A stretch of 64,000 bases of DNA, taken from NCBI RefSeq assembly GCF_003334255.1, contig NZ_QOWU01000015.1; one strand, written 5' to 3'. Below are positions 3,582 to 44,533 of this stretch, in pieces. The notes beneath the pieces were generated by a model. That model had not been told where the DNA came from, ran no database searches, and saw nothing but the letters and a program-made list of their open reading frames with translations. The position numbers were made by a program, and so were the translations under genes. Each line of letters starts with the position of its first letter. Position 1 is the stretch's first letter. Source of the DNA: Escherichia coli. GTDB taxonomy: Bacteria > Pseudomonadota > Gammaproteobacteria > Enterobacterales > Enterobacteriaceae.

Positions 3582-4070
3582 ATGAGACTGACATCTAAAG
3601 GGCGCTATGCCGTGACCGCAATGCTTGACGTTGCGCTCAACTCTGAAGCGGGCCCGGTACCGTTGGCTGATATTTCCGAACGTCAGGGAATTTCCCTTTC
3701 TTATCTGGAACAACTGTTTTCCCGTCTGCGTAAAAATGGTCTGGTTTCCAGCGTACGTGGACCAGGCGGTGGTTATCTGTTAGGCAAAGATGCCAGCAGC
3801 ATCGCCGTTGGCGAAGTAATTAGCGCCGTTGACGAATCTGTAGATGCCACCCGTTGTCAGGGTAAAGGCGGCTGCCAGGGCGGCGATAAATGCCTGACCC
3901 ACGCGCTGTGGCGTGATTTGAGCGACCGTCTCACCGGTTTTCTCAACAACATTACTTTAGGCGAACTGGTTAATAACCAGGAAGTGCTGGATGTGTCTGG
4001 TCGTCAGCATACTCACGACGCGCCACGCACCCGCACACAAGACGCGATCGACGTTAAGTTACGCGCTTAA
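3582..4070 (+). CDS. iscR: IscR, Rrf2-family Fe-S cluster regulator
   Basis: 162-aa ORF with N-terminal HTH and the cluster-ligand region [13 protein letters not shown]. Confidence 0.97.
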
Positions 4071-4181
4071 TAAAAAGAATTCAGAATCAGGCCGGAGTGC
4101 TAAATACTCCGTAAACACGGTCGTACATCCAGCCGGTAGCCTGATTCCTTGCATTGAGTGATGTACGGAGTTTATAGAGCA

Positions 4182-5396
4182 ATGAAATTACCGATTTATC
4201 TCGACTACTCCGCAACCACGCCGGTGGACCCGCGTGTTGCCGAGAAAATGATGCAGTTCATGACGATGGACGGAACCTTTGGTAACCCGGCCTCTCGTTC
4301 TCACCGTTTCGGCTGGCAGGCTGAAGAAGCGGTAGATATCGCCCGTAATCAGATTGCCGATCTGGTCGGCGCTGATCCGCGTGAAATCGTCTTTACCTCT
4401 GGTGCAACCGAATCTGACAACCTGGCGATCAAAGGTGCAGCCAACTTTTATCAGAAAAAAGGCAAGCACATCATCACCAGCAAAACCGAACACAAAGCGG
4501 TACTGGATACCTGCCGTCAGCTGGAGCGCGAAGGTTTTGAAGTCACCTACCTGGCACCGCAGCGTAACGGCATTATCGACCTGAAAGAACTTGAAGCAGC
4601 GATGCGTGACGACACCATCCTTGTTTCCATCATGCACGTAAATAACGAAATCGGCGTGGTGCAGGATATCGCGGCTATCGGCGAAATGTGCCGTGCTCGT
4701 GGCATTATCTATCACGTTGATGCAACCCAGAGCGTGGGCAAACTGCCTATCGACCTGAGCCAGTTGAAAGTTGACCTGATGTCTTTCTCCGGTCACAAAA
4801 TCTATGGCCCGAAAGGTATCGGTGCGCTGTATGTACGTCGTAAACCGCGCGTACGCATCGAAGCGCAAATGCACGGCGGCGGTCACGAGCGCGGTATGCG
4901 TTCCGGCACTCTGCCTGTTCACCAGATCGTCGGAATGGGCGAGGCCTATCGCATCGCAAAAGAAGAGATGGCGACCGAGATGGAACGTCTGCGCGGCCTG
5001 CGTAACCGTCTGTGGAACGGCATCAAAGATATCGAAGAAGTTTACCTGAACGGTGACCTGGAACACGGTGCGCCGAACATTCTCAACGTCAGCTTCAACT
5101 ACGTTGAAGGTGAGTCGCTGATTATGGCGCTGAAAGACCTCGCAGTTTCTTCAGGTTCCGCCTGTACGTCAGCAAGCCTCGAACCGTCCTACGTGCTGCG
5201 CGCGCTGGGGCTGAACGACGAGCTGGCACATAGCTCTATCCGTTTCTCTTTAGGTCGTTTTACTACTGAAGAAGAGATCGACTACACCATCGAGTTAGTT
5301 CGTAAATCCATCGGTCGTCTGCGTGACCTTTCTCCGCTGTGGGAAATGTACAAGCAGGGCGTGGATCTGAACAGCATCGAATGGGCTCATCATTAA
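4182..5396 (+). CDS. iscS: IscS cysteine desulfurase
   Basis: Start [14 protein letters not shown] at 4182; PLP-lysine motif SFSGHK; active-site SSGSACTS. The track ORF begins 8 codons upstream. Confidence 0.97.
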
Positions 5397-5826: not shown

Positions 5827-6150
5827 ATGTCGATTACACTGAGCGACAGTGCAGCAGCGCGAGTAAATACCTTTCTGGCTAACCGCGGCAAAGGGTTTGG
5901 CCTGCGTCTGGGCGTGAGAACCTCCGGATGTTCAGGTATGGCTTATGTACTGGAATTTGTTGACGAACCGACGCCGGAAGACATCGTGTTTGAAGACAAA
6001 GGCGTGAAAGTCGTGGTCGATGGCAAAAGCCTGCAATTTCTGGACGGTACGCAGCTGGACTTCGTAAAAGAAGGCCTGAACGAAGGGTTTAAATTCACCA
6101 ACCCGAACGTCAAAGATGAGTGTGGTTGCGGCGAAAGCTTCCACGTTTGA
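5827..6150 (+). CDS. iscA: IscA A-type Fe-S carrier
   Basis: 107 aa from ATG 5827 (MSITLSD...); C-terminal CGCGESF motif. Confidence 0.95.
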
Positions 6151-6245
6151 TGCGCATACCGATAACCCCACCGTGGTCGCCTGCGCGTGGGGTTTGTTTT
6201 ACCTGATTCGCCGTTATCGCGGCGGATCGCAGCCCTGAGAATGTT

Positions 6246-6761
6246 ATGGATTACTTCACCCTCTTTGGCTTGCCTGCCCGTTATCAACTCGATACCCAGG
6301 CGCTGAGCCTGCGTTTTCAGGATCTACAACGTCAGTATCATCCTGATAAATTCGCCAGCGGAAGCCAGGCGGAACAACTCGCCGCCGTACAGCAATCTGC
6401 AACCATTAACCAGGCCTGGCAAACGCTGCGTCATCCGTTAATGCGCGCGGAATATTTGCTTTCTTTGCACGGCTTTGATCTCGCCAGCGAGCAGCATACT
6501 GTGCGCGACACCGCGTTCCTGATGGAACAGTTGGAGCTGCGCGAAGAGCTGGACGAGATCGAACAGGCGAAAGATGAAGCGCGGCTGGAAAGCTTTATCA
6601 AACGTGTGAAAAAGATGTTTGATACCCGCCATCAGTTGATGGTTGAACAGTTAGACAACGAGACGTGGGACGCGGCGGCGGATACCGTGCGTAAGCTGCG
6701 TTTTCTCGATAAACTGCGAAGCAGTGCCGAACAACTCGAAGAAAAACTGCTCGATTTTTAA
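6246..6761 (+). CDS. hscB: HscB J-type co-chaperone
   Basis: 171-aa ORF with the J-domain HPD motif (QYHPDKF). Confidence 0.95.
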
Positions 6762-6777
6762 TTTCTGGAAGCTAAAC

Positions 6778-8628
6778 ATGGCCTTATTACAAATTAGTGA
6801 ACCTGGTTTGAGTGCTGCGCCGCATCAGCGTCGTCTGGCGGCCGGTATTGACCTGGGCACAACCAACTCGCTGGTGGCGACAGTGCGCAGCGGTCAGGCC
6901 GAAACGTTAGCCGATCATGAAGGCCGTCACCTGCTGCCATCTGTTGTTCACTATCAACAGCAAGGGCATTCGGTGGGTTATGACGCGCGTACTAATGCAG
7001 CGCTCGATACCGCCAACACAATTAGTTCTGTTAAACGCCTGATGGGACGCTCGCTGGCTGATATCCAGCAACGCTATCCGCATCTGCCTTATCAATTCCA
7101 GGCCAGCGAAAACGGCCTGCCGATGATTGAAACGGCGGCGGGGCTGCTGAACCCGGTGCGCGTTTCTGCGGACATCCTCAAAGCACTGGCGGCGCGGGCA
7201 ACTGAAGCCCTGGCAGGCGAGCTGGATGGTGTAGTTATCACCGTTCCGGCGTACTTTGACGATGCCCAGCGTCAGGGCACCAAAGACGCGGCGCGTCTGG
7301 CGGGCCTTCACGTCCTGCGCTTACTTAACGAACCGACCGCTGCGGCTATCGCCTACGGGCTGGATTCCGGTCAGGAAGGCGTGATCGCCGTTTATGACCT
7401 CGGTGGCGGGACGTTTGATATTTCCATTCTGCGCTTAAGTCGCGGCGTGTTTGAAGTGCTGGCAACCGGCGGTGATTCCGCGCTCGGCGGCGATGATTTC
7501 GACCATCTGCTGGCGGATTACATTCGCGAGCAGGCGGGCATTCCTGATCGTAGCGATAACCGCGTTCAGCGTGAACTGCTGGATGCCGCCATTGCAGCCA
7601 AAATCGCGCTGAGCGATGCGGACTCCGTGACCGTTAACGTTGCGGGCTGGCAGGGCGAAATCAGCCGTGAACAATTCAATGAACTGATCGCGCCACTGGT
7701 AAAACGAACCTTACTGGCTTGTCGTCGCGCGCTGAAAGACGCGGGTGTAGAAGCTGATGAAGTGCTGGAAGTGGTGATGGTGGGCGGTTCTACTCGCGTG
7801 CCGCTGGTGCGTGAACGGGTAGGCGAATTTTTCGGTCGTCCACCGCTGACTTCCATCGACCCGGATAAAGTCGTCGCTATTGGCGCGGCGATTCAGGCGG
7901 ATATTCTGGTGGGTAACAAGCCAGACAGCGAAATGCTGTTGCTTGATGTGATCCCACTGTCGCTGGGCCTCGAAACGATGGGCGGCCTGGTGGAGAAAGT
8001 GATTCCGCGTAATACCACTATTCCGGTGGCCCGCGCTCAGGATTTCACCACCTTTAAAGATGGTCAGACGGCGATGTCTATCCATGTAATGCAGGGTGAG
8101 CGCGAACTGGTGCAGGACTGCCGCTCACTGGCGCGTTTTGCGCTGCGTGGTATTCCGGCGCTACCGGCTGGCGGTGCGCATATTCGCGTGACGTTCCAGG
8201 TCGATGCCGACGGTCTTTTGAGCGTGACGGCGATGGAGAAATCCACCGGCGTTGAGGCGTCTATTCAGGTCAAACCGTCTTACGGTCTGACCGATAGCGA
8301 AATCGCTTCGATGATCAAAGACTCAATGAGCTATGCCGAGCAGGACGTAAAAGCCCGAATGCTGGCAGAACAAAAAGTAGAAGCGGCGCGTGTGCTGGAA
8401 AGTCTGCACGGCGCGCTGGCTGCTGATGCCGCGCTGTTAAGCGCCGCAGAACGTCAGGTCATTGACGATGCTGCCGCTCACCTGAGTGAAGTGGCGCAGG
8501 GCGATGATGTTGACGCCATCGAACAAGCGATTAAAAACGTAGACAAACAAACCCAGGATTTCGCCGCTCGCCGCATGGACCAGTCGGTTCGTCGTGCGCT
8601 GAAAGGCCATTCCGTGGACGAGGTTTAA
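6778..8628 (+). CDS. hscA: HscA Hsp70-type chaperone
   Basis: 616 aa from ATG 6778 ([10 protein letters not shown]); Hsp70 signatures IDLGTTNS and DLGGGTFD. Confidence 0.95.
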
Positions 8629-11580: not shown

Positions 11581-11736
11581 TCGGGCTTACTTGCTGCTCT
11601 GAAGGTTGTTAACCACCAGTAAATTGTCGCCGGAGAGACTCCGGTTATTATTTACCTCGGTTAACAGCGCACCAGAAACAATAAGTACGATACAAAAGCA
11701 CCGTATCTTCATTGTGCGGTCCATGCGAAGACCGCA

Positions 11737-11935: not shown

Positions 11936-12032
11936 CGCTGAGACGCGCTTGCATTACTACGGTAATACAACCTGCTGGAAAGGCCGCGAACCGGACCAGC
12001 AACAAAAAACCGCCTGATTTTGGCGGTTTTTT
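11936..12032 (+). ncRNA. Candidate ~100-nt sRNA (TimR-like), copy 1
   Basis: Runs from the predicted TSS to an intrinsic terminator (ccgcc-tgatttt-ggcgg + T6, 12009-12032). Contains ggaaaggccgc, complementary (with one bulge) to the 5' UTR of the minus-strand small-ORF transcript. Confidence 0.4.
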
Positions 12033-12222
12033 GTTTTTTAAAGGAAAGTGAATTTACATGTTTAAGTAATATCTTTTACCGGTTAGAATTTTTAATTTTG
12101 AGCAGGATTTGTTTATATTTGTCTGAATTCAGACTAATAAGCCAGGTTATTTTATTACCGAACACGGCGGAAAGGGCCGGTGTCGATAATACGCTAAATA
12201 AACAATAATTACTCTCTTTTGC

Positions 12223-12251
12223 TTGACAAAAAGAGAGTTACTGGTGAGTAT
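12223..12251 (+). promoter_or_regulatory. Sigma70-like promoter, copy 2
   Basis: Identical TTGACA (12223-12228), 17-nt spacer and GAGTAT (12246-12251), in the same palindrome context as copy 1. Confidence 0.4.
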
Positions 12252-29898: not shown

Positions 29899-31511
<1,613 letters not shown>

Positions 31512-31573
31512 TTATTCAGTCGATAGTAACCCGCCCTTCGGGGATAGCAAGCATTTTTTGCAAAAAGGGGTAG

Positions 31574-31599
31574 ATGCAATCGGTTACGCTCTGTATAAT
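31574..31599 (+). promoter_or_regulatory. guaB promoter -10 with PurR-box-like sequence
   Basis: TATAAT at 31594-31599; atgcaatcggttacgc (31574-31589) resembles the PurR operator. Confidence 0.5.
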
Positions 31600-31642
31600 G
31601 CCGCGGCAATATTTATTAACCACTCTGGTCGAGATATTGCCC

Positions 31643-33109
31643 ATGCTACGTATCGCTAAAGAAGCTCTGACGTTTGACGACGTTCTCCTCGTTCCTGCTC
31701 ACTCTACCGTTCTGCCGAATACTGCTGACCTCAGCACCCAGCTGACGAAAACTATTCGTCTGAATATCCCTATGCTTTCCGCAGCAATGGATACCGTAAC
31801 GGAAGCGCGCCTGGCTATTGCTCTGGCTCAGGAAGGCGGTATCGGCTTTATCCACAAAAACATGTCCATTGAACGCCAGGCAGAAGAAGTTCGCCGTGTG
31901 AAAAAACACGAATCTGGTGTGGTGACTGATCCGCAGACTGTTCTGCCAACCACGACGCTGCGCGAAGTGAAAGAACTGACCGAGCGTAACGGTTTTGCGG
32001 GCTATCCGGTCGTTACCGAAGAAAACGAACTGGTGGGTATTATCACCGGTCGTGACGTGCGTTTTGTTACCGACCTGAACCAGCCGGTTAGCGTTTACAT
32101 GACGCCGAAAGAGCGTCTGGTCACCGTGCGTGAAGGTGAAGCCCGTGAAGTGGTGCTGGCAAAAATGCACGAAAAACGCGTTGAAAAAGCGCTGGTGGTT
32201 GATGACGAATTCCACCTGATCGGCATGATCACCGTGAAAGACTTCCAGAAAGCGGAACGTAAACCGAACGCCTGTAAAGACGAGCAAGGCCGTCTGCGTG
32301 TTGGTGCAGCGGTTGGCGCAGGTGCGGGTAACGAAGAGCGTGTTGACGCGCTGGTTGCCGCAGGCGTTGACGTTCTGCTGATCGACTCCTCCCACGGTCA
32401 CTCAGAAGGTGTACTGCAACGTATCCGTGAAACCCGTGCTAAATATCCGGATCTGCAAATTATCGGCGGCAACGTGGCAACAGCTGCAGGTGCACGCGCT
32501 CTGGCAGAAGCTGGTTGCAGTGCGGTTAAAGTCGGCATTGGCCCTGGCTCTATCTGTACAACTCGTATCGTGACTGGCGTCGGTGTTCCGCAGATTACCG
32601 CTGTTGCTGACGCAGTAGAAGCCCTGGAAGGCACCGGTATTCCGGTTATCGCTGATGGCGGTATTCGCTTCTCCGGCGACATCGCCAAAGCTATCGCCGC
32701 TGGCGCAAGCGCGGTGATGGTAGGTTCCATGCTGGCGGGTACTGAAGAATCTCCGGGTGAAATCGAACTCTACCAGGGCCGTTCTTACAAATCTTACCGT
32801 GGTATGGGTTCCCTGGGCGCGATGTCCAAAGGTTCCTCTGACCGTTATTTCCAGAGCGATAACGCTGCCGACAAACTGGTGCCGGAAGGTATCGAAGGTC
32901 GCGTAGCCTATAAAGGTCGCCTGAAAGAGATCATTCACCAGCAGATGGGCGGCCTGCGCTCCTGTATGGGTCTGACCGGCTGTGGTACTATCGACGAACT
33001 GCGTACTAAAGCGGAGTTTGTACGTATCAGCGGTGCGGGCATTCAGGAAAGCCACGTTCACGACGTGACCATTACTAAAGAGTCCCCGAACTACCGTCTG
33101 GGCTCCTGA
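31643..33109 (+). CDS. guaB: GuaB IMP dehydrogenase
   Basis: 488 aa from ATG 31643 (MLRIAKEA); catalytic loop [11 protein letters not shown]. Confidence 0.97.
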
Positions 33110-33177
33110 TTCTCTTCGCCCGACTTCATGTCGGGCGATTTATATTATCTGTTTCACTTGCCTCGGAATAAGCGTCA

Positions 33178-34755
33178 ATGACGGAAAACATTCATAAGCA
33201 TCGCATCCTCATTCTGGACTTCGGTTCTCAGTACACTCAACTGGTTGCGCGCCGCGTGCGTGAGCTGGGTGTTTACTGCGAACTGTGGGCGTGGGATGTG
33301 ACAGAAGCACAAATTCGTGACTTCAATCCAAGCGGCATTATTCTTTCCGGCGGCCCGGAAAGTACTACTGAAGAAAACAGTCCGCGTGCGCCGCAGTATG
33401 TCTTTGAAGCAGGCGTACCGGTATTCGGCGTTTGCTATGGCATGCAGACCATGGCAATGCAGTTGGGCGGTCACGTTGAAGCCTCTAACGAACGTGAATT
33501 TGGCTACGCGCAGGTTGAAGTCGTAAACGACAGCGCACTGGTTCGCGGTATCGAAGATGCGCTGACCGCAGACGGTAAACCGCTGCTCGATGTCTGGATG
33601 AGCCACGGCGATAAAGTTACCGCTATTCCGTCCGACTTCATCACCGTAGCCAGCACCGAAAGCTGCCCGTTTGCCATTATGGCTAACGAAGAAAAACGCT
33701 TCTATGGCGTACAGTTCCACCCGGAAGTGACTCACACCCGCCAGGGTATGCGCATGCTGGAGCGTTTTGTGCGTGATATCTGCCAGTGTGAAGCCTTGTG
33801 GACGCCAGCGAAAATTATCGACGATGCTGTAGCTCGCATCCGCGAGCAGGTAGGCGACGATAAAGTCATCCTCGGCCTCTCTGGTGGTGTGGATTCCTCC
33901 GTAACCGCAATGCTGCTGCACCGCGCTATCGGTAAAAACCTGACTTGCGTATTCGTCGACAACGGCCTGCTGCGCCTCAACGAAGCAGAGCAGGTTCTGG
34001 ATATGTTTGGCGATCACTTTGGTCTTAACATTGTTCACGTACCGGCAGAAGATCGCTTCCTGTCAGCGCTGGCTGGCGAAAACGATCCGGAAGCAAAACG
34101 TAAAATCATCGGTCGCGTTTTCGTTGAAGTATTCGATGAAGAAGCGCTGAAACTGGAAGACGTGAAGTGGCTGGCGCAGGGCACCATCTACCCTGACGTT
34201 ATCGAATCTGCGGCGTCTGCAACCGGTAAAGCACACGTCATCAAATCTCACCACAACGTGGGCGGCCTGCCGAAAGAGATGAAGATGGGCCTGGTTGAAC
34301 CGCTGAAAGAGCTGTTCAAAGACGAAGTGCGTAAGATTGGTCTGGAGCTGGGCCTGCCGTACGACATGCTGTACCGTCACCCGTTCCCGGGACCAGGCCT
34401 TGGCGTTCGTGTTCTGGGTGAAGTGAAGAAAGAGTACTGTGACCTGCTGCGCCGTGCTGACGCCATCTTCATTGAAGAACTGCGTAAAGCGGACCTGTAC
34501 GACAAAGTCAGCCAGGCGTTCACTGTGTTCCTGCCGGTACGTTCCGTTGGCGTAATGGGCGATGGTCGTAAGTATGACTGGGTTGTCTCTCTGCGTGCTG
34601 TCGAAACCATCGACTTTATGACCGCACACTGGGCGCATCTGCCGTACGATTTCCTCGGTCGCGTTTCCAACCGCATTATCAATGAAGTGAACGGTATTTC
34701 CCGCGTGGTGTATGACATCAGCGGCAAGCCGCCAGCTACCATTGAGTGGGAATGA
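33178..34755 (+). CDS. guaA: GuaA GMP synthase
   Basis: 525-aa ORF with GATase (GVCYGMQ) and PP-loop (SGGVDSS) motifs. Confidence 0.97.
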
Positions 34756-34780
34756 TTTGACCCTGCACTATGAATGAACA

Positions 34781-34810
34781 AAACCCTCTGTTACTACAGA
34801 GGGTTTTTTA
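34781..34810 (+). terminator. Intrinsic terminator of guaBA
   Basis: aaccctctg-ttactac-agagggtt followed by ttttta. Confidence 0.8.
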
Positions 34811-34847
34811 TCTTCAAGAATTATAGGATTGAAGTTACTAACATCGA

Positions 34848-35387
34848 TTAATTAAACCAGCTGTCCGATTTGTTCTCTTCTGCTTTGCCCACGCTTTTCA
34901 TCAGATCGCGACCGCCTTCAGTCATATTTCTGTTGGCGTCAGCTTCAGATTGCACCACATCGGTTTGCGCAGCTTTGTGCTTCAGTTCCTGATCGATAAA
35001 TTCGTTTTCTCGCTTAACGCGGGCTTCTTCTTTCGCCAGCGCCAGTTTTTGTTTCTGAATCTCTAAGCTGCGTAGCTCATCTTCATAACTTTGATCGCGT
35101 TTTTTGTCCGCAGAGGCTTCGGCGTCCAGTTTATCCTGACGAGCTTTCTTATTTGCCGCTGCCGTTGCCGCTCTTTTGTTAGCGGCGGCCTGGGCATTTG
35201 CGCGACGTTGCTTCTCTTGCTGGATTTCCCTGTTGCGCTCCGCGACCCATTCGTCATGCTGCCTTTGCTCTTCATTTTTACCTTGCTGTTCCGCTTCTGC
35301 GACAGCAGAGAGTTGATCCTGCAATGATGAGGCGATAGCCGGATAGCTTAAGGAGGCTAAGATGGCGCAAAGAAAAACTTTCTTCAT
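34848..35387 (-). CDS. yfgI: YfgI, secreted charged coiled-coil protein
   Basis: 179-aa ORF; signal peptide MKKVFLCAILASLSYPAIA; K/E/Q/A-rich. Confidence 0.85.
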   Translation of the reverse strand: MKKVFLCAILASLSYPAIASSLQDQLSAVAEAEQQGKNEEQRQHDEWVAERNREIQQEKQRRANAQAAANKRAATAAANKKARQDKLDAEASADKKRDQSYEDELRSLEIQKQKLALAKEEARVKRENEFIDQELKHKAAQTDVVQSEADANRNMTEGGRDLMKSVGKAEENKSDSWFN

Positions 35388-35402
35388 GACTCCTCCTGAT
35401 TA

Positions 35403-35921
35403 TTAGCTCTTTTCAGGACATTTGGTATTTGGCTGAATACGCGTTTCGTTATACGTCGTGGTAATAACAACGGCTAAACCTGTCGTAAACTGGCACTCTT
35501 TACCCACCTGGGTAGAGGTATACACTTTGGTGCCTTCCTTATAGGTTAAAGAAACACCTTCCACTAAGGTTTTATCATTCACCATAGAACCCGCTGCCGC
35601 GCCTACAGCTCCGCCGCCAACTGCACCTGCCGTCGTTCCGGAATTGCTGCCAGACCCGACGTTGTGGCCGATAACACCGCCAGCGACTGCGCCAATAAGC
35701 GCGCCGAAGGCTTGTGCGTTCCGTTTATTTTGGGAGTTGTCTACGGCAACTTTTGCGGGAAGAATGGAAATAATATTAACGGTTTTAGTTTCTTGTTTGG
35801 TATTCAGTTGATCGGTTTGATAAACATCGGCAGCATGATCGTCAGCATTTGACTGGCATCCTGCCAGAGTGAATGACGCTAACATTGCCACAGGCAGAAG
35901 ACATTTTTTAAATTTCATCAC
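35403..35921 (-). CDS. yfgH: YfgH, outer-membrane glycine-zipper lipoprotein
   Basis: 172-aa ORF; lipobox LAGC; glycine-zipper stretch GALIGAVAGGVIGHNVG. Confidence 0.85.
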   Translation of the reverse strand: MMKFKKCLLPVAMLASFTLAGCQSNADDHAADVYQTDQLNTKQETKTVNIISILPAKVAVDNSQNKRNAQAFGALIGAVAGGVIGHNVGSGSNSGTTAGAVGGGAVGAAAGSMVNDKTLVEGVSLTYKEGTKVYTSTQVGKECQFTTGLAVVITTTYNETRIQPNTKCPEKS

Positions 35922-36231
35922 TATTCCTTGTTATACACATTACGAAAAATAAGACATTTAAGATCATCAAAAGAGGAAAGTAAATGTATTGCGTATAAAG
36001 GGATAGATTAAATTTATTAAAATTCACGCAGGGAATAATTTATAAAAATATATCATTACAACATATATATTAATTTTATATTTATTTCGCAGCCAAACAG
36101 GATAAACATCAGTCAGGATAAAGACGTAAAATTTAAGATGAAAGAATATCTGCCGCTTTGATAATCCCAAACAGCAAAAGCATCCGACAGCGAAGTGCCG
36201 TTATGTTCTGTGAAAGTGGAGAAGGTAACCG

Positions 36232-36423
36232 CTAACGTTGTACCGGTGATTCGACGGAGAGTGTGGATTGCTGAGCTTCTTTTTTGCTCTGATGGTGCTG
36301 CCAGGCACCGACGGACGAGTAGATAAAACGGCCAAAGAAGAAGATAAAGCTGATGAGCAGTACGATACGGGTCATGCGACTGTTAAATCGGTGTCGTTTT
36401 CGCATACTGGTTGCCTGACTCAC
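36232..36423 (-). CDS. yfgG: YfgG, small membrane protein
   Basis: 63-aa ORF with one TM segment (IVLLISFIFFFGRFIY). Confidence 0.75.
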   Translation of the reverse strand: MSQATSMRKRHRFNSRMTRIVLLISFIFFFGRFIYSSVGAWQHHQSKKEAQQSTLSVESPVQR

Positions 36424-36633
36424 AAAAGGTTCCTTGAAGTATGTCCCACGCTGTGGACGGTACTTACATTAAGGCACAACAGGACAAAATGGTCAATTCT
36501 TCGTTATGTAAAAAAGCGTCAGTGGATACATATTTTAATGTTATGGAAGTTAATTTAATTATTTACAATGATGATGTAATAATGATGAATTAACATGATA
36601 AACGTAATAATTCATTAATCAGGGTTATTTTGT

Positions 36634-36674
36634 TTGATATATATCAATTGGTACTTTCATATGACACTTAGAAT
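36634..36674 (+). promoter_or_regulatory. FNR-dependent class II promoter of pdeF
   Basis: Perfect FNR consensus TTGAT-atat-ATCAA at 36634-36647; -10 TAGAAT at 36669-36674, which places the site near -41.5. Confidence 0.65.
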
Positions 36675-36774
36675 CAATGCTCTCTATAGTGATGAATAAT
36701 CATCATTCGAAGTCAGGTGGGATGCCTGTCTGAATACACCTCCTTCAGGATGTGGGGGATTCTGCTGAGCATCT

Positions 36775-39018
36775 ATGAAACTGAATGCAACTTATATAAA
36801 AATACGTGATAAATGGTGGGGGCTTCCGCTGTTCCTGCCTTCTTTAATCTTGCCCATTTTCGCCCACATTAATACTTTCGCGCATATTTCTTCCGGTGAG
36901 GTTTTTCTCTTTTATCTGCCTCTGGCACTGATGATCAGCATGATGATGTTTTTCAGCTGGGCGGCATTGCCAGGGATCGCCTTAGGGATTTTTGTCCGCA
37001 AATATGCAGAGCTGGGTTTTTACGAAACGCTATCATTAACGGCTAATTTTATTATCATTATCATTCTCTGTTGGGGCGGTTACAGGGTCTTTACTCCCCG
37101 GCGTAACAACGTTTCACATGGTGATACCCGTTTAATTTCCCAGCGTATATTCTGGCAGATTGTGTTTCCTGCAACGCTGTTTCTGATACTTTTCCAGTTT
37201 GCTGCATTTGTAGGATTACTGGCGAGCAGAGAAAATCTGGTCGGTGTCATGCCTTTTAACCTCGGGACTTTAATCAATTATCAGGCCTTACTGGTGGGTA
37301 ATCTGATCGGTGTCCCGCTGTGCTACTTCATCATTCGGGTAGTGCGAAATCCATTTTATTTACGTAGCTATTATTCGCAATTAAAACAGCAGGTTGATGC
37401 CAAAGTCACCAAAAAAGAGTTCGCGCTCTGGCTACTGGCATTAGGTGCTTTATTGTTGCTGTTATGCATGCCGTTAAATGAAAAAAGCACAATTTTTAGC
37501 ACCAATTATACCTTGTCATTATTGCTGCCCCTGATGATGTGGGGAGCGATGCGCTATGGTTATAAGCTGATTTCGCTGCTCTGGGCGGTCGTGTTGATGA
37601 TCAGCATCCACAGCTATCAAAATTACATTCCCATTTATCCTGGCTATACCACGCAGCTGACCATAACCTCCTCCAGTTATCTGGTATTCTCTTTTATTGT
37701 CAATTATATGGCTGTACTGGCAACCCGTCAGAGAGCGGTAGTCAGACGCATTCAGCGGCTTGCGTATGTGGACCCGGTGGTTCATCTGCCAAATGTTCGC
37801 GCCCTGAATCGCGCGTTGCGTGATGCCCCCTGGTCTGCGCTTTGTTATTTACGCATCCCTGGCATGGAAATGCTGGTTAAGAACTATGGCATCATGCTGC
37901 GGATTCAATACAAGCAAAAACTTTCTCACTGGCTGTCACCCTTGCTGGAACCGGGTGAAGATGTTTATCAGCTTTCGGGTAACGATCTCGCGCTGCGACT
38001 GAATACAGAATCGCACCAGGAGCGCATTACCGCACTGGATAGCCATCTCAAGCAATTTCGTTTCTTTTGGGATGGCATGCCGATGCAACCGCAGATTGGC
38101 GTCAGTTACTGCTATGTGCGCTCGCCAGTGAATCATATCTACCTGCTGCTGGGAGAGCTAAATACGGTCGCCGAACTTTCCATCGTGACCAACGCCCCGG
38201 AAAATATGCAGCGTCGCGGGGCAATGTATTTGCAACGCGAATTGAAAGATAAAGTCGCGATGATGAATCGACTACAGCAGGCGCTGGAACACAACCATTT
38301 TTTCCTGATGGCCCAGCCGATTACCGGTATGCGTGGTGATGTTTACCATGAAATTCTTCTGCGCATGAAAGGTGAGAATGATGAACTGATCAGCCCCGAT
38401 AGCTTCTTGCCGGTCGCACACGAATTTGGTTTATCGTCGAGTATCGACATGTGGGTCATTGAGCATACGCTGCAATTTATGGCTGAAAACAGAGCGAAGA
38501 TGCCCGCTCACCGTTTTGCTATTAATCTGTCTCCAACCTCGGTATGTCAGGCTCGTTTTCCTGTTGAAGTCAGTCAGTTGCTGGCTAAATATCAGATTGA
38601 AGCGTGGCAACTTATTTTTGAAGTCACCGAAAGTAATGCTCTGACCAATGTTAAGCAGGCGCAAATCACCTTGCAGCATCTTCAGGAATTAGGCTGCCAG
38701 ATTGCGATTGATGATTTCGGCACCGGCTACGCCAGCTATGCGCGGCTTAAAAATGTGAATGCCGATCTGCTTAAAATTGACGGCAGTTTTATCCGCAATA
38801 TTGTGTCAAATAGTCTGGATTATCAGATAGTGGCATCGATTTGCCACCTGGCGCGAATGAAGAAAATGCTGGTAGTGGCAGAGTACGTTGAAAACGAAGA
38901 GATCCGCGAGGCGGTGCTCTCTTTGGGGATCGATTATATGCAGGGTTATCTTATTGGTAAGCCGCAGCCGTTAATTGATACGCTGAATGAAATCGAACCC
39001 ATTCGCGAAAGTGCCTGA
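36775..39018 (+). CDS. pdeF: PdeF (YfgF), MASE1 / degenerate GGDEF / EAL c-di-GMP phosphodiesterase
   Basis: 747-aa ORF: N-terminal multi-TM MASE1-like region, degenerate GGDEF (SGNDL), EAL-type domain with the signature E-I-L (HEILLRM). Confidence 0.9.
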   Translation: MKLNATYIKIRDKWWGLPLFLPSLILPIFAHINTFAHISSGEVFLFYLPLALMISMMMFFSWAALPGIALGIFVRKYAELGFYETLSLTANFIIIIILCWGGYRVFTPRRNNVSHGDTRLISQRIFWQIVFPATLFLILFQFAAFVGLLASRENLVGVMPFNLGTLINYQALLVGNLIGVPLCYFIIRVVRNPFYLRSYYSQLKQQVDAKVTKKEFALWLLALGALLLLLCMPLNEKSTIFSTNYTLSLLLPLMMWGAMRYGYKLISLLWAVVLMISIHSYQNYIPIYPGYTTQLTITSSSYLVFSFIVNYMAVLATRQRAVVRRIQRLAYVDPVVHLPNVRALNRALRDAPWSALCYLRIPGMEMLVKNYGIMLRIQYKQKLSHWLSPLLEPGEDVYQLSGNDLALRLNTESHQERITALDSHLKQFRFFWDGMPMQPQIGVSYCYVRSPVNHIYLLLGELNTVAELSIVTNAPENMQRRGAMYLQRELKDKVAMMNRLQQALEHNHFFLMAQPITGMRGDVYHEILLRMKGENDELISPDSFLPVAHEFGLSSSIDMWVIEHTLQFMAENRAKMPAHRFAINLSPTSVCQARFPVEVSQLLAKYQIEAWQLIFEVTESNALTNVKQAQITLQHLQELGCQIAIDDFGTGYASYARLKNVNADLLKIDGSFIRNIVSNSLDYQIVASICHLARMKKMLVVAEYVENEEIREAVLSLGIDYMQGYLIGKPQPLIDTLNEIEPIRESA

Positions 39019-39023
39019 ATAAT

Positions 39024-39050
39024 GCGGGCCGACATTTCTCGTCGGCCCGC
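39024..39050. terminator. Bidirectional stem-loop between pdeF and ppx
   Basis: gcgggccgac-atttctc-gtcggcccgc, a perfect 10-bp stem. Confidence 0.6.
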
Positions 39051-39056
39051 AAAGTA

Positions 39057-42669
<3,613 letters not shown>

Positions 42670-42802
42670 TACCACTTTTACTCCGTTTTATTCACGGGAC
42701 ACTGCCTGGATATTATGGCGAGCAATATTGGCAGATGTCCAACTATGCCAGAAAAGGGGGAAAAAAACTGCTGGAGCTTGCGATTTACAGGTGAATTGAA
42801 AA

Positions 42803-42830
42803 ACGCCAGCGGCAGAGCTGGCGCTTTAAC
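42803..42830 (-). terminator. Putative terminator of purMN
   Basis: Minus strand cgccagctctgccgctggcg followed by tttttc. Confidence 0.55.
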
Positions 42831-42839
42831 TACGGGGCA

Positions 42840-43477
42840 TTACTCGTCGGCAGCGTAGCCCTGCGGCGGCAGACGTTGACCATCCAGCCACGCGGCGTTT
42901 TCGTGCATTTTCAGACGACCATCGGCAAACCAGCTAATCACCAGTGGATAAATAGCGTGTTCCTGGGTTTGCACGCGGGCGGTGATGTCATCTTCCGTAT
43001 CACCAGCAAATACCGGGACTTTCGCCTGTAAAATAACCGGGCCACCGTCCAGTTCATCGGTGACGAAATGCACCGATGTACCGTGCTCTTCATCACCATT
43101 TTCCAGCGCCTGACGATGGGTGTGTAATCCGGGATATTTCGGCAGCAGAGAAGGGTGAATGTTCAGCAAACGCCCGGCATAGTGGGAGACAAACGCCGGG
43201 CTGAGAATGCGCATAAAACCAGCCAGCACGACCATATCGGGTGCGTACATGTCGATTTCATGAATCAACTCCCGGTCATAGGCTTCACGACTGTCAAACG
43301 CGCTGGCGATGAGCGTATGCGTTGCAATACCCGCCTGGCGGGCGCGTTCAAGGCCGAACGCGTCGGCCTTATTGCTGAAAACTGCCCGTACGGTGCCTTT
43401 AATTTTGTTAGTTTTACAGGCGTCAATAATTGCCTGTAAATTACTTCCGTTGCCGGAAATAAGCACCACAATATTCA

Positions 43478-43478
<1 letters not shown>
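42840..43478 (-). CDS. purN: PurN GAR transformylase
   Basis: 212-aa ORF; start overlaps the purM stop by 1 nt. Confidence 0.95.

Positions 43479-44533
<1,055 letters not shown>

Follow-up and report, generated by a model that had tools for sequence, protein, structure and literature searches.

The AT-rich yfgI-yfgH-yfgG-pdeF segment of Escherichia coli, a probable mosaic of three transcription units beside an integration hot spot

Between guaA and ppx, the E. coli chromosome carries yfgI, yfgH, yfgG and pdeF (yfgF) in a stretch of low GC content. Do these four genes form one island and one regulatory module? An initial annotation had proposed so, describing H-NS-silenced DNA and an under-characterised envelope-stress or anaerobiosis module. 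We analysed a window of 64 kb (the whole stretch of DNA considered here) and a comparison set of 80 related loci, all from Enterobacteriaceae and with a Ppx identity of 82% or more. The RefSeq annotation of identical E. coli DNA confirmed that the window is E. coli chromosome and that gene calls and coordinates are correct (Table 1), including the gene identities given initially. The protein descriptions (a 63-aa TM peptide, a glycine-zipper lipoprotein, a secreted coiled-coil protein and a c-di-GMP phosphodiesterase) also hold. The segment is probably a mosaic: three independently transcribed units beside an integration hot spot, not one island or module.

Table 1. Features of the guaA-ppx region (positions in the window)
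Feature	Position	Strand	Description	Basis
guaA	33178-34755		flank of region	RefSeq annotation
Empty attB, GIsul2-type elements	34744-34755	+	last 12 nt of guaA, GAGTGGGAATGA	
Hairpin terminator	34780-34807	.	AAAACCCTCTGT-TACT-ACAGAGGGTTTT, A and T runs both sides	terminator scan, inverted repeat
yfgI	34848-35387	-	secreted DUF5384 protein; second gene of yfgHI	annotation; Pfam DUF5384, E = 9e-62
yfgH	35403-35921	-	outer-membrane lipoprotein, SlyB/glycine-zipper family	
AT-rich spacer 1	35922-36231		310 bp, 30.6% GC; 5' of yfgHI, 3' of yfgG	
yfgHI promoter-like element	35956-35984	-	TTTACT (35984-35979), 17 nt, TTAAAT (35961-35956)	
yfgG	36232-36423	-	63-aa DUF2633 small membrane protein	Pfam DUF2633, E = 4e-28
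AT-rich spacer 2	36424-36774		34.2% GC; divergent control region of yfgG and pdeF	
50-codon ORF	36441-36593	+	PGAP hypothetical protein, 31% GC	
yfgG sigma-70 promoter	36468-36496	-	TTGACC (36496-36491), 17 nt, CTTAAT (36473-36468)	
FNR box	36634-36647	+	TTGATATATATCAA, class II pdeF promoter	
pdeF -10 hexamer	36669-36674	+	TAGAAT, conserved	published -10 element (PMC3718329)
Near-invariant 21-nt block	36714-36734	+	CAGGTGGGATGCCTGTCTGAA, pdeF leader, about +33 to +53	
pdeF (yfgF)	36775-39018	+	MASE1, degenerate GGDEF, EAL; anaerobic c-di-GMP phosphodiesterase	annotation, Pfam, literature
ppx	39057-40598		other flank	RefSeq annotation

The low-GC stretch is real. From yfgI to pdeF the GC content is 44.9%, against 52.7% and 51.2% in the flanking 10 kb. 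The two spacers initially called strikingly AT-rich hold both GC minima of the 64 kb: the two lowest non-overlapping 200-bp windows lie at 35898-36097 (22.5%) and 36504-36703 (24.0%), about 6 sd below the mean (52.3%, sd 5.0), and the next lowest is at 30.5%. The other spacers reach 44.8% when pooled and the whole window 52.2%. Coding sequences of the segment are only mildly low (46.6-49.5%), with a deficit mainly at codon position 1, reflecting amino-acid composition; GC3 is clearly low only in yfgH (z = -2.65). Codon usage of the four genes is not atypical and stays inside the spread seen for core genes nearby (Karlin B z-scores: yfgI -0.3, yfgG 0.8, yfgH 2.1, pdeF 4.4; guaB 8.8, guaA 6.3). 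The segment thus differs from its flanks in GC content but not in codon usage, and the compositional half of the island argument that concerns codons is lost.

Synteny splits the proposed island. The order ppk-ppx-pdeF-yfgG is kept in Escherichia, Citrobacter, Salmonella, Enterobacter, Klebsiella, Kluyvera, Kosakonia, Buttiauxella and other genera, and yfgG adjoins pdeF wherever the locus extends far enough to show both genes. To judge from its presence beside ppx in about 70 Enterobacteriaceae loci, the pair is ancestral. PdeF (Pfam domains MASE1, 15-320, and EAL, 498-730) evolves fast, with 53-76% identity across genera versus 82-94% for Ppx. YfgG has a single hydrophobic segment, and its gene is intact in two Kosakonia loci (L044 and L045) even though pdeF has decayed there.

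The two genes share spacer 2 as a divergent control region of about 350 bp and fixed length. Among the approximately 70 loci it measures 338-355 bp, with three exceptions (two Salmonella at 413-415 bp and locus L079 at 319 bp), and its GC content varies between 32 and 48%. In 4638 of 5423 E. coli genomes the spacer reaches 99% identity or more. The AT-richness of spacer 2 is a conserved trait of H-NS-accessible regulatory DNA, not a sign of foreign DNA. The yfgG promoter hexamers are those predicted by Shimada et al. (PMC3946193), and both are among the best-conserved stretches of the spacer (mostly at least 90%). On the other side, the FNR box is the published site at -41.5 of pdeF (PMC3718329). 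It is the sole perfect match in the window, and 68 of 72 related loci have a TTGA[ACT]-N4-[AGT]TCAA box 131-150 bp 5' of the pdeF ATG. The -41.5 spacing would place the transcription start near 36682. As in class II FNR promoters, a perfect TTGAT-N4-ATCAA thus precedes the presumed start by 41.5 bp and is followed by a TAGAAT -10; the likeness concerns pdeF only, no comparable site being present for yfgG or yfgHI. Spacer 2 also includes a 50-codon ORF, which is probably not a gene: it is not intact outside Escherichia, is shifted or absent in other genera, and had no protein family match in a family search. Its seeming conservation coincides with the yfgG promoter hexamers.

In contrast to the pdeF-yfgG pair, yfgHI is confined to 6 of the 80 related loci; within E. 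coli it is fixed (5426/5426 genomes). The chromosomal carriers examined are Escherichia, two Citrobacter, a Pseudocitrobacter MAG and one further Enterobacteriaceae genome, all with the genes at the same position, and in all loci examined yfgI lies directly 3' of a YfgH-like gene. The two genes probably form a discrete, bicistronic accessory cassette, placed in a hypervariable slot that reaches from yfgG to the hairpin terminator following guaA. Among related loci the yfgG-guaA interval varies between 61 bp and over 7 kb. Cargo elsewhere includes a LysR and MFS pair, an MscS-like channel, a TorA/TorC-like reductase, a fimbrial usher, a 1700-aa RecQ/UvrD helicase, prophage lysis genes and, as read from the sequences, inositol-catabolism-like ORFs. 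Seven genomes have an empty slot, with only 61-299 bp between yfgG and guaA and a hairpin in each (CCCTCTG..CAGAGGG in L012, L017, L019 and L076, a different sequence in the other three). The window hairpin, with its flanking A and T runs, would serve both convergent genes, guaA and yfgI, and is likely the ancestral right edge of the slot. Two Citrobacter loci with 90-93% DNA identity differ in the presence of yfgHI.

A YfgH-like plus DUF5384 pair is also present on 200 plasmid and 13 phage records. Full-length homologous pairs occur in P1/P7-type phages, IncY phage-plasmids and ColE1-type plasmids, the ColRNAI plasmids concerned measuring 3.9-7.5 kb. Identity to E. coli YfgH/YfgI decreases from chromosomal copies (77-85%) to Col plasmids (60-70%) and P7/IncY (about 48%). 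The P7 pair upf50.5/upf50.0 has the same order, lipoprotein then DUF5384, and full-length homology (YfgI 47.5% identical), but it sits between the immunity region (immI) and a late operon (tail tube), and its upstream DNA gives no convincing alignment to the chromosomal counterpart.

The other side of the slot is an integration site. The core site of GIsul2, 5'-GAGTGGGA-3', was described at the guaA 3' end, with an empty attB in E. coli DH5alpha (PMC9376610). The window holds this core site, and its attB is likewise empty. In strain 81EVA, an element of about 10.9 kb carrying integrase, RepA, TrbJ-TrbL and TraJ genes separates guaA from yfgI, with the GAGTGGGAATGA repeat on either side. At least one strain has a prophage at this junction, the phage TL-2011b record extends into yfgI-yfgH-yfgG, and 963 of 5426 complete E. 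coli genomes (17.7%) have an interrupted guaA-yfgI junction. Because the guaA 3' end is a GIsul2-type attB and a prophage is present at the same junction, the neighbourhood would keep gathering AT-rich accessory DNA. The yfgHI genes are not themselves a GIsul2-type element, since they lie beyond the guaA terminator and are not bounded by an att repeat. In E. coli, the cassette is bounded by neither an integrase nor a tRNA gene, and no direct repeats flank it.

YfgH carries the lipobox LAGC and a Pfam Gly-zipper 2TM domain. Translation probably begins at the ATG at 35918, where homologues start; they lack the GTG. It matches SlyB (PDB 7OJF) over its full length (E = 4e-10), and its alignment to TraT is weak (E = 0.013). 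According to a December 2025 preprint (bioRxiv 10.64898/2025.12.22.696046), yfgH is an envelope-stress gene with about 7 YfgH copies per cell in LB; it is induced by lpxC, lptD or bamA knock-down, and the protein stabilises the outer membrane and is predicted to form ring oligomers. YfgH is probably an outer-membrane ring lipoprotein like SlyB (7OJF/7OJG) and TraT. It differs from them in always preceding a DUF5384 gene in the loci examined, within a pair also found on phages and plasmids, in being nearly silent without stress, and in its genetic suppressors (clsA, as against the Mla pathway in the case of slyB). YfgH may work together with YfgI, a secreted, long coiled-coil-like protein.

The cassette would bring its own AT-rich upstream region, spacer 1. 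This DNA diverges fast: identities within the genus are 87.7% and 77.6%, and identity is below 95% in 913 of 5420 E. coli genomes. It contains neither gene remnants nor an Rfam match; a weak terminator-like hairpin lies just 3' of yfgG (36185-36200, minus strand). All six chromosomal yfgHI loci keep the TTTACT hexamer and the AACAAGGAAT ribosome-binding stretch, and five keep TTAAAT (L010 is the exception); beyond about 75 nt the distal AT-rich DNA is unalignable among them. The promoter-like element, which is followed by an AAGGAA ribosome-binding site, is not a canonical sigma-70 match and was not flagged by the promoter scan; we infer a promoter role.

Is this DNA silenced by H-NS? The window has a sole perfect copy of TCGATAAATT, which we take to be a high-affinity H-NS motif, inside yfgI (34993-35002, plus strand; pattern search), and a one-mismatch copy at 34844-34853. 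Binding is known from the literature, as are the control of pdeF by FNR and BasR and the phenotypes of YfgH and YfgG. The yfgF/yfgG spacer is an H-NS genomic-SELEX site (PMC3946193) and also holds a PgrR genomic-SELEX site; yfgH and the yfgHI transcription unit are H-NS-bound by ChAP-seq, a per-gene call that holds for one or more of the three E. coli strains, with an 'L/N' entry for yfgH in the HTG column (PMC4720273 S2 Table). The initial H-NS claim therefore stands for binding, and silencing may be the cause of the low yfgHI expression. The H-NS-bound cassette is, as reported, near-silent in rich medium and induced when outer-membrane biogenesis fails. The segment resembles H-NS-bound xenogeneic DNA of E. 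coli and Salmonella in its 22-34% GC tracts, in the published binding at both places, in the very low basal expression of yfgH, in the patchiness of yfgHI and in the rapid change of spacer 1 within the species. It differs in its normal codon usage, in the fixation of yfgHI in E. coli without bounding integrase or att sites, and in that pdeF-yfgG, one half of the supposed island, belongs to the ancestral core and has a conserved AT-rich spacer.

Each of the three transcription units has a promoter-like element of its own, and their documented associations differ. Control of pdeF is FNR-dependent and anaerobic (PMC3718329), and BasR binds its promoter (EMSA). A Ni/Co tolerance phenotype is reported for yfgG (bioRxiv 10.1101/387399), whereas yfgH is associated with depletion of LpxC, LptD or BamA (bioRxiv 10.64898/2025.12.22.696046). 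Our analysis gave no evidence that yfgG, yfgHI and pdeF are co-regulated, nor did we find data in which they are co-expressed. The envelope-stress link suggested initially is thus borne out for yfgH and does not extend to a four-gene module. As a whole, the initial interpretation is partly supported.

Composition, synteny, mobile homologues, the attB and the conservation of promoter elements, all observed directly, also bear on the alternatives. That the four genes were acquired together as one H-NS-silenced, co-regulated envelope-stress or anaerobiosis island is very improbable. They are contiguous and low in GC, H-NS binds at yfgH as well as in the yfgF/yfgG spacer, each of the four products belongs to the envelope or a membrane, the surface properties of pdeF mutants are altered (PMC3718329) and the envelope- and metal-responsive BasR binds the pdeF promoter. 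Yet essentially all of the Enterobacteriaceae loci examined carry pdeF-yfgG and yfgHI is patchy, therefore the units differ in history; codon usage is normal, the FNR box serves pdeF only, and yfgG and yfgHI each have a conserved promoter-like element, with 310 bp and a weak terminator-like hairpin between them. The unlike associations of the units and the survival of yfgG beside a decayed pdeF in Kosakonia argue in the same direction. A more modest alternative sees in the spacers only ordinary promoter AT-richness in long intergenic DNA, with incidental H-NS binding and nothing foreign. E. coli intergenic DNA is generally AT-rich, and other spacers of the window (upp-uraA, pbpC-ndk and guaA-yfgI) reach 30.6-37% GC. 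H-NS SELEX marks 24-36% of RpoD holoenzyme-bound spacers, neighbouring upp/purM included (PMC3946193), spacer 2 is conserved and dense in regulatory sites, and the codon usage is normal. We consider this unlikely nonetheless: the two minima stand far below any other non-overlapping 200-bp window, yfgHI is patchy and has phage and plasmid homologues, and spacer 1 is hypervariable within E. coli, therefore an accessory H-NS-bound segment fits it better than a constrained core promoter.

The most serious challenge to the mosaic with an accessory yfgHI, although still a doubtful one, is that yfgHI never was an insertion: it would be ancestral to Escherichia-Salmonella-Citrobacter and repeatedly lost, the phage and plasmid copies being later captures. 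The coding sequences, which lack any compositional sign of foreign origin, count against an accessory origin; the order of identities from chromosomes to Col plasmids to P7/IncY and the missing mobility hallmarks agree with ancestry. Whether yfgHI was gained or lost is a matter of inference. Old presence with repeated loss fits the chromosomal pattern as well as repeated gain, because all carriers examined have yfgHI at one position and the divergence of the cassette DNA between two carrier hosts (75%) resembles that of the flanks (71-84%). Against ancestry, YfgH/YfgI identity is nearly flat (77-85%) across hosts in which PdeF varies from 57 to 75% and Ppx from 86 to 93%, copies in the more remote hosts L052 and L084 are as close to those of E. 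coli as the Citrobacter copies or closer, the close Citrobacter pair differs in presence, and the slot is in high flux of unrelated cargo.

Nearly all of the region has already been described, and the mosaic is in this sense a largely ordinary finding; the exceptions are YfgI and the 21-nt pdeF leader block. The block is the most conserved stretch of spacer 2. It had no match in an Rfam search, and RNAalifold gives only an almost invariant CAGG-N7-CCTG hairpin. YfgI, which has a signal peptide followed by DUF5384, is predicted by AF2 as one long helix (residues 2-178, pLDDT 86). Its family is small (258 clusters among 5.8e9 proteins), and the named matches are all from Enterobacteriaceae except one partial match. 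Over their full length, YfgI matches phrog_1094 and YfgH matches phrog_1277.

Within the window, which runs from csiE and the isc operon through guaBA and ppx-ppk to the hyf operon of the E. coli chromosome, gene coordinates were taken from the RefSeq annotation of an identical E. coli strain (see table); the coordinates and gene names of the initial annotation agree with them. A 4.4-kb query over the yfgI-pdeF region gave matches in 5426/5426 complete E. coli genomes, with a single place covering at least 80% of it in 5408/5426. The four genes had initially been taken as one low-GC, H-NS-silenced island forming an envelope-stress or anaerobiosis module. Our best reading is instead a mosaic, in which pdeF-yfgG, an ancestral pair whose AT-rich control region is conserved, would lie beside an accessory, H-NS-bound yfgHI cassette (yfgH and yfgI) with phage and plasmid homologues, next to a heavily used attB at the guaA end. 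Adjacency does not make a module: here an old regulatory pair would stand beside a slot (the variable interval from yfgG to the guaA terminator) that acquires accessory DNA time and again, itself next to an attB. For these annotated genes of E. coli K-12, the composition, H-NS binding, FNR control and, recently, the function of YfgH have already been published; the value of the finding lies in the corrected framing of the region.

Coordinates of the features discussed (window positions unless a fetched locus, L044 or L045, is named)
Feature	Position	Strand	Remark
Empty GIsul2-type attB	34744-34755		GAGTGGGAATGA
CCCTCTG..CAGAGGG hairpin	34780-34807		between yfgI and guaA
yfgI	34848-35387	-	RefSeq
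yfgH	35403-35921	-	RefSeq
Probable yfgH start codon	35918 (ATG)		annotated as GTG (MMKFKK...), which is missing from homologues of other genera; these begin at the corresponding ATG
yfgG	36232-36423	-	RefSeq
50-aa "hypothetical protein"	36441-36593	+	RefSeq/PGAP, WP_000017552.1
yfgG promoter	36496-36468	-	TTGACC-17-CTTAAT, predicted by Shimada et al. (PMC3946193)
FNR box, perfect	36634-36647		TTGATATATATCAA (TTGAT-N4-ATCAA)
pdeF -10 element	36669-36674		TAGAAT
Near-invariant 21-nt block	36714-36734		CAGGTGGGATGCCTGTCTGAA; about +33 to +53 of the pdeF transcript; about 56 genus-level sequences
pdeF	36775-39018	+	RefSeq
ppx	39057-40598	-	RefSeq
pdeF remnant	L044 11558-12126		Kosakonia arachidis
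pdeF remnant	L045 11593-12820		Kosakonia oryziphila

The AT-richness noticed initially is genuine and not a matter of chance. The spacer between yfgG and yfgH (35922-36231, spacer 1) has 30.6% GC and the divergent yfgG/pdeF control region (36424-36774, spacer 2) 34.2%, against 44.8% for the window's other spacers pooled. Of all 200-bp stretches in the 64 kb, the two poorest in GC (22.5% and 24.0%, about 6 sd under the window mean) fall one in each spacer, and provide AT tracts suited to H-NS nucleation. The third-lowest stretch (30.5%) belongs to a 661-bp spacer adjoining timP, whose product is a small toxic inner-membrane protein (positions 11587-11712 and 12027-12226). The four coding sequences are merely mildly low in GC (46.6-49.5%). 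Their deficit at codon position 1, seen in pdeF, yfgG and yfgH (z = -2.5 to -3.5), reflects amino-acid composition, and GC3 is unremarkable save in yfgH (z = -2.65). When the codon-usage distance of each gene from the other 43 genes of the window was calibrated by simulation, z was -0.3 for yfgI, 0.8 for yfgG, 2.1 for yfgH and 4.4 for pdeF, inside the range of neighbouring core genes, some of which deviate more (guaB 8.8, guaA 6.3, iscS 5.0). The initial annotation had made an island depend on GC and codon usage setting these genes apart from their flanks; since their codon usage is not atypical, half of that test fails. Composition gives extreme spacers (22-34% GC) beside coding sequences whose codon usage is in the core-gene range, and the low GC of the region stems mostly from the spacers. 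Insertion sequences are found in the region in some E. coli strains: features of the matched region in NZ_CP069882.1 and NZ_CP122507.1 include an IS200C transposase and an IS5 with two thirds of the region lost, and the AT-rich spacers may be IS targets.

We then compared 80 Enterobacteriaceae loci, retrieved with Ppx as query and 10-kb flanks, onto which the E. coli proteins were mapped. The order ppk-ppx-pdeF-yfgG was found in practically all loci that reach far enough to reveal it, in Escherichia, Citrobacter, Salmonella, Enterobacter, Klebsiella, Raoultella, Kosakonia, Kluyvera, Leclercia, Lelliottia, Atlantibacter and Buttiauxella. PdeF is fast-evolving (53-76% identity, against 82-94% for Ppx). 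By contrast with this near-universal pair, yfgH-yfgI occurs in 6/80 loci (two Escherichia, two Citrobacter, a Pseudocitrobacter MAG and one other Enterobacteriaceae), and a single low-GC island acting as an envelope or anaerobiosis module is not supported: patchiness among the 80 loci is limited to yfgHI and does not extend to the whole segment. The yfgG-guaA interval varies in length between 61 bp and over 7 kb, with unrelated cargo by lineage: a LysR regulator with an MFS transporter, an MscS-like channel, a TorA/TorC-like reductase, a chaperone-usher fimbrial operon, a 1700-aa RecQ/UvrD helicase, prophage lysis cassettes, or inositol-catabolism-like ORFs (the last recognised by reading the sequences). 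Seven genomes carry an empty slot, where yfgG is followed after 61-299 bp by guaA; each gap holds a hairpin, and a CCCTCTG..CAGAGGG hairpin is common to four of them (L012, L017, L019 and L076) and to the window. Two Citrobacter loci with 90-93% DNA identity differ in the presence of yfgHI. Given the rarity of yfgHI, the variable and empty slots and the recent Citrobacter polymorphism, yfgHI with its 310-bp AT-rich upstream DNA behaves like a self-contained accessory unit that is lodged past yfgG and ahead of the guaA terminator, and pdeF-yfgG is ancestral.

In three loci from lineages with an MscS-like gene in the slot, the YfgG match ends at 78% of its length (L020 14140-14286, L084 14136-14282 and L011 14141-14287), which suggests that the left slot edge there lies inside the yfgG 3′ end. 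In Kosakonia arachidis and K. oryziphila only pdeF remnants (5% and 36%) are left, adjoining a full-length yfgG; since yfgG is intact beside a decayed pdeF, its function would not depend strictly on PdeF.

The distribution of yfgHI may reflect either repeated gain or repeated loss. Exchange is favoured by an identity pattern that is flat across hosts. Age is favoured by its constant chromosomal position and by DNA divergence like that of the flanks. As for hallmarks of mobility around yfgHI, no tRNA gene was found in 30000-44000, no meaningful flanking direct repeats were detected, and the RefSeq annotation has no integrase in this region of the window. Identical YfgG segments had suggested a recent slot transfer between L020 and L084; their slot DNA is 75% identical, not above the flanks, and the idea was dropped. 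Searches of spacer 1 with tblastn and blastn for remnants of genes, such as the MscS-like gene that Citrobacter has there, found none.

The DNA immediately beyond yfgI is a known hot spot of integration. A 301-bp probe spanning the guaA-yfgI junction was intact in 4463/5426 complete E. coli genomes and interrupted in the other 963/5426. In strain 81EVA (locus L093), the junction holds an element of about 10.9 kb in which a tyrosine integrase comes first, then RepA, TrbJ/TrbL and TraJ; on either side of the element stands GAGTGGGAATGA, the 12 nt with which guaA ends (L093 9130-9141 and 20005-20016). This site equals the published GIsul2 attB, 5′-GAGTGGGA-3′, at the guaA 3′ end (PMC9376610). The record of phage TL-2011b enters yfgI-yfgH-yfgG straight after its spanin, endolysin and holin genes; the end of this record (L092 1850-3425) is host DNA, with part of pdeF followed by yfgG, yfgH and yfgI. 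A lysis cassette related to that of TL-2011b occupies the slot of five other genera.

The ancestral pair shares a control region whose AT-rich DNA is constrained regulatory sequence. Spacer 2 measures 338-355 bp at 32-48% GC in about 70 loci, with three exceptions (two Salmonella loci at 413-415 bp, and L079 at 319 bp); within E. coli it shows at least 99% identity in 4638/5423 genomes and less than 95% in none. A TTGA[ACT]-N4-[AGT]TCAA box lies 131-150 bp upstream of the pdeF ATG in 68/72 related loci. The FNR box of the window, the only perfect FNR consensus in 64 kb, and the TAGAAT element agree with the published class II FNR promoter of yfgF, the synonym of pdeF (PMC3718329). This class II arrangement, with TTGAT-N4-ATCAA near -41.5 and a -10 element, was found for pdeF only. 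The yfgG promoter hexamers are among the best-conserved parts of spacer 2, mostly at 90% or more. The ORF that PGAP places in this 31%-GC spacer was considered as a small protein; outside Escherichia its reading frame is not kept, and its apparent conservation coincides with the yfgG promoter hexamers that it overlaps, so that these 50 codons are probably an annotation artefact and not a gene.

Downstream of the pdeF promoter, the 21-nt block is followed on its 3′ side by a CCC..GGG hairpin-like segment of variable sequence (36737-36745), and GAGCATCTATG is conserved at the pdeF start codon (36765-36774). We looked for RNA structure in several ways. Rfam covariance models gave no match to the spacers or pdeF leader over 34000-39500 at E up to 1; RNAalifold returned only an invariant 5-pair hairpin in the leader (covariation term -0.06); MFE z-scores of the CCC..GGG hairpin were near 0 (mean -0.22); and an anchored pairing test of the leader did no better than shifted controls. 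A candidate long-range pairing GGAUGC:GCAUCU, read from the alignment, has compensatory changes in a single Buttiauxella locus and is disrupted in other loci. A 3-codon uORF, AUG-CCU-GUC-UGA, in the block is weakened as a candidate by AUA in place of AUG in 7/56 sequences. The block could be an unrecognised post-initiation control element of pdeF, the anaerobic c-di-GMP phosphodiesterase. With its fixed length, FNR box and leader block, the control region is conserved enough for targeted mutagenesis. PdeF itself carries MASE1 (PF05231, residues 15-320, E = 6e-71) and EAL (PF00563, residues 498-730, E = 8e-71) domains, as an EAL-type phosphodiesterase; its GGDEF domain is too degenerate for Pfam detection.

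The only perfect TCGATAAATT of the 64 kb, a high-affinity H-NS motif, lies inside yfgI. The proposed H-NS binding is supported by published data: genomic SELEX placed an H-NS site in the yfgF/yfgG spacer (PMC3946193), and in ChAP-seq yfgH and the yfgHI unit were bound in at least one of SE15, SE11 and K-12, with ppx, ppk and purN unbound (PMC4720273 S2 Table). The same table gives yfgH as "L/N" in its HTG column, for horizontal-transfer prediction methods. Other controls differ between the genes. pdeF is activated by FNR (PMC3718329) and repressed by BasR. Over-expression or disruption of yfgG alters Ni/Co tolerance (bioRxiv 10.1101/387399). According to a preprint in which yfgI and yfgG are nowhere mentioned (bioRxiv 10.64898/2025.12.22.696046), a cell grown in LB contains about 7 copies of YfgH, knock-down of lpxC, lptD or bamA induces it strongly, and it stabilises the outer membrane; "envelope stress" was apt for yfgH. 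Low basal level and stress induction are compatible with H-NS silencing. The yfgHI orthologues of S. Typhi (srgIL) are SdiA-regulated and, according to published work, missing from S. Typhimurium; in E. coli the pair was not under SdiA control. The grouping of all four genes as a co-regulated module finds no such backing. pdeF is divergent from yfgG, yfgH and yfgI and alone has an FNR box, the 310-bp yfgG-yfgH gap contains a terminator-like hairpin as well as a conserved promoter-like block of its own, and tight linkage is limited to yfgH-yfgI (15-bp gap). Transcription is predicted to start near 35949(-), 36461(-) and 36682(+). We found nothing to indicate joint regulation of the three units pdeF, yfgG and yfgHI.

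The approximately 75 nt immediately upstream of yfgH contain a putative promoter, TTTACT-17-TTAAAT, then AAGGAA; TTTACT and the ribosome-binding stretch are present in 6/6 chromosomal carriers and TTAAAT in 5/6. The distal AT-rich DNA is unalignable, at 31-36% GC in all carriers. Spacer 1 is hypervariable even within E. coli (below 95% identity in 913/5420 genomes), with identity down to 87.7% and 77.6% within the genus. Judging from the homologues, the annotated GTG start of yfgH is probably off by one codon.

YfgH has a LAGC lipobox and a Gly-zipper domain (PF05433, E = 7e-8) and matches SlyB over its full length (PDB 7OJF, E = 4e-10, residues 8-163 on 6-154), as a SlyB-like lipoprotein with a Gly-zipper 2TM; its match to TraT, a plasmid exclusion protein, is weak. 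AF3 models and pull-downs suggest that it may form a ring oligomer around lipid or outer-membrane proteins (bioRxiv 10.64898/2025.12.22.696046). YfgI belongs to Pfam DUF5384, a small family (258 clusters among 5.8 billion proteins) whose organism-named matches are all from Enterobacteriaceae, save one partial match labelled Staphylococcus aureus. AlphaFold2 predicts YfgI as a single helix (residues 2-178, pLDDT 86), which would fit a coiled-coil-forming periplasmic protein. A Skp-like chaperone was considered and rejected, as the model is one unbroken helix with no beta core and the sequence has no relative in the PDB. PADLOC defence models gave no families for the four proteins at E up to 0.01.

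In every locus examined, the gene directly upstream of a DUF5384 gene encodes a YfgH-like glycine-zipper lipoprotein. Searches with YfgI by tblastn reached 200 plasmid and 13 phage records; a few of the "plasmid" records, at 1.4-4.9 Mb and with the chromosomal copy at 99-100% identity, look like mislabelled chromosomes. Mobile carriers of the pair include ColRNAI mobilizable plasmids of 3.9-7.5 kb (60-70% identity) and an IncY phage-plasmid, among the 186 plasmid records below 60% identity. In phage P7 the pair (upf50.5/upf50.0, L091 3476-4540) lies between the immI region (c4-icd-ant) and the late tail-tube operon, and the P1-like phages SJ46, RCS47 and JL22 have a DUF5384 homologue at 47.5% identity, as in P7. 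Both proteins match PHROGs over their full length (E = 3e-104 and 5e-111). RefSeq and PHROGs label YfgH homologues "DNA methyltransferase", evidently a propagated mis-annotation of an outer-membrane lipoprotein.

These homologues suggest a role for yfgHI in the competition of mobile elements with their hosts. It is conceivable, if rather doubtful, that YfgH and YfgI make up an obligate two-protein envelope device, domesticated in E. coli under H-NS. YfgH would then form an outer-membrane ring of the SlyB/TraT kind, and YfgI, once secreted, a coiled coil with some 150 residues and a length of about 20 nm at full extension; P1/P7-type phages and phage-plasmids and ColE1-type plasmids would carry the pair as envelope-hardening or exclusion cargo. 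If so, YfgI would be the partner missing from current work on YfgH. Studies of YfgH in outer-membrane stress should in any case include the always-linked yfgI and account for the phage and plasmid homologues.

On the 7.5-kb ColRNAI plasmid CP056397.1 (L089), a PEtN transferase gene (3593-5134) lies beside the YfgH-like/DUF5384 pair (5899-6967). This transferase was considered as an MCR enzyme; it reaches no MCR model and has only distant CptA/EptA-family matches, below the cut-offs. This small mobilizable replicon thereby carries two envelope-remodelling functions on 7.5 kb.
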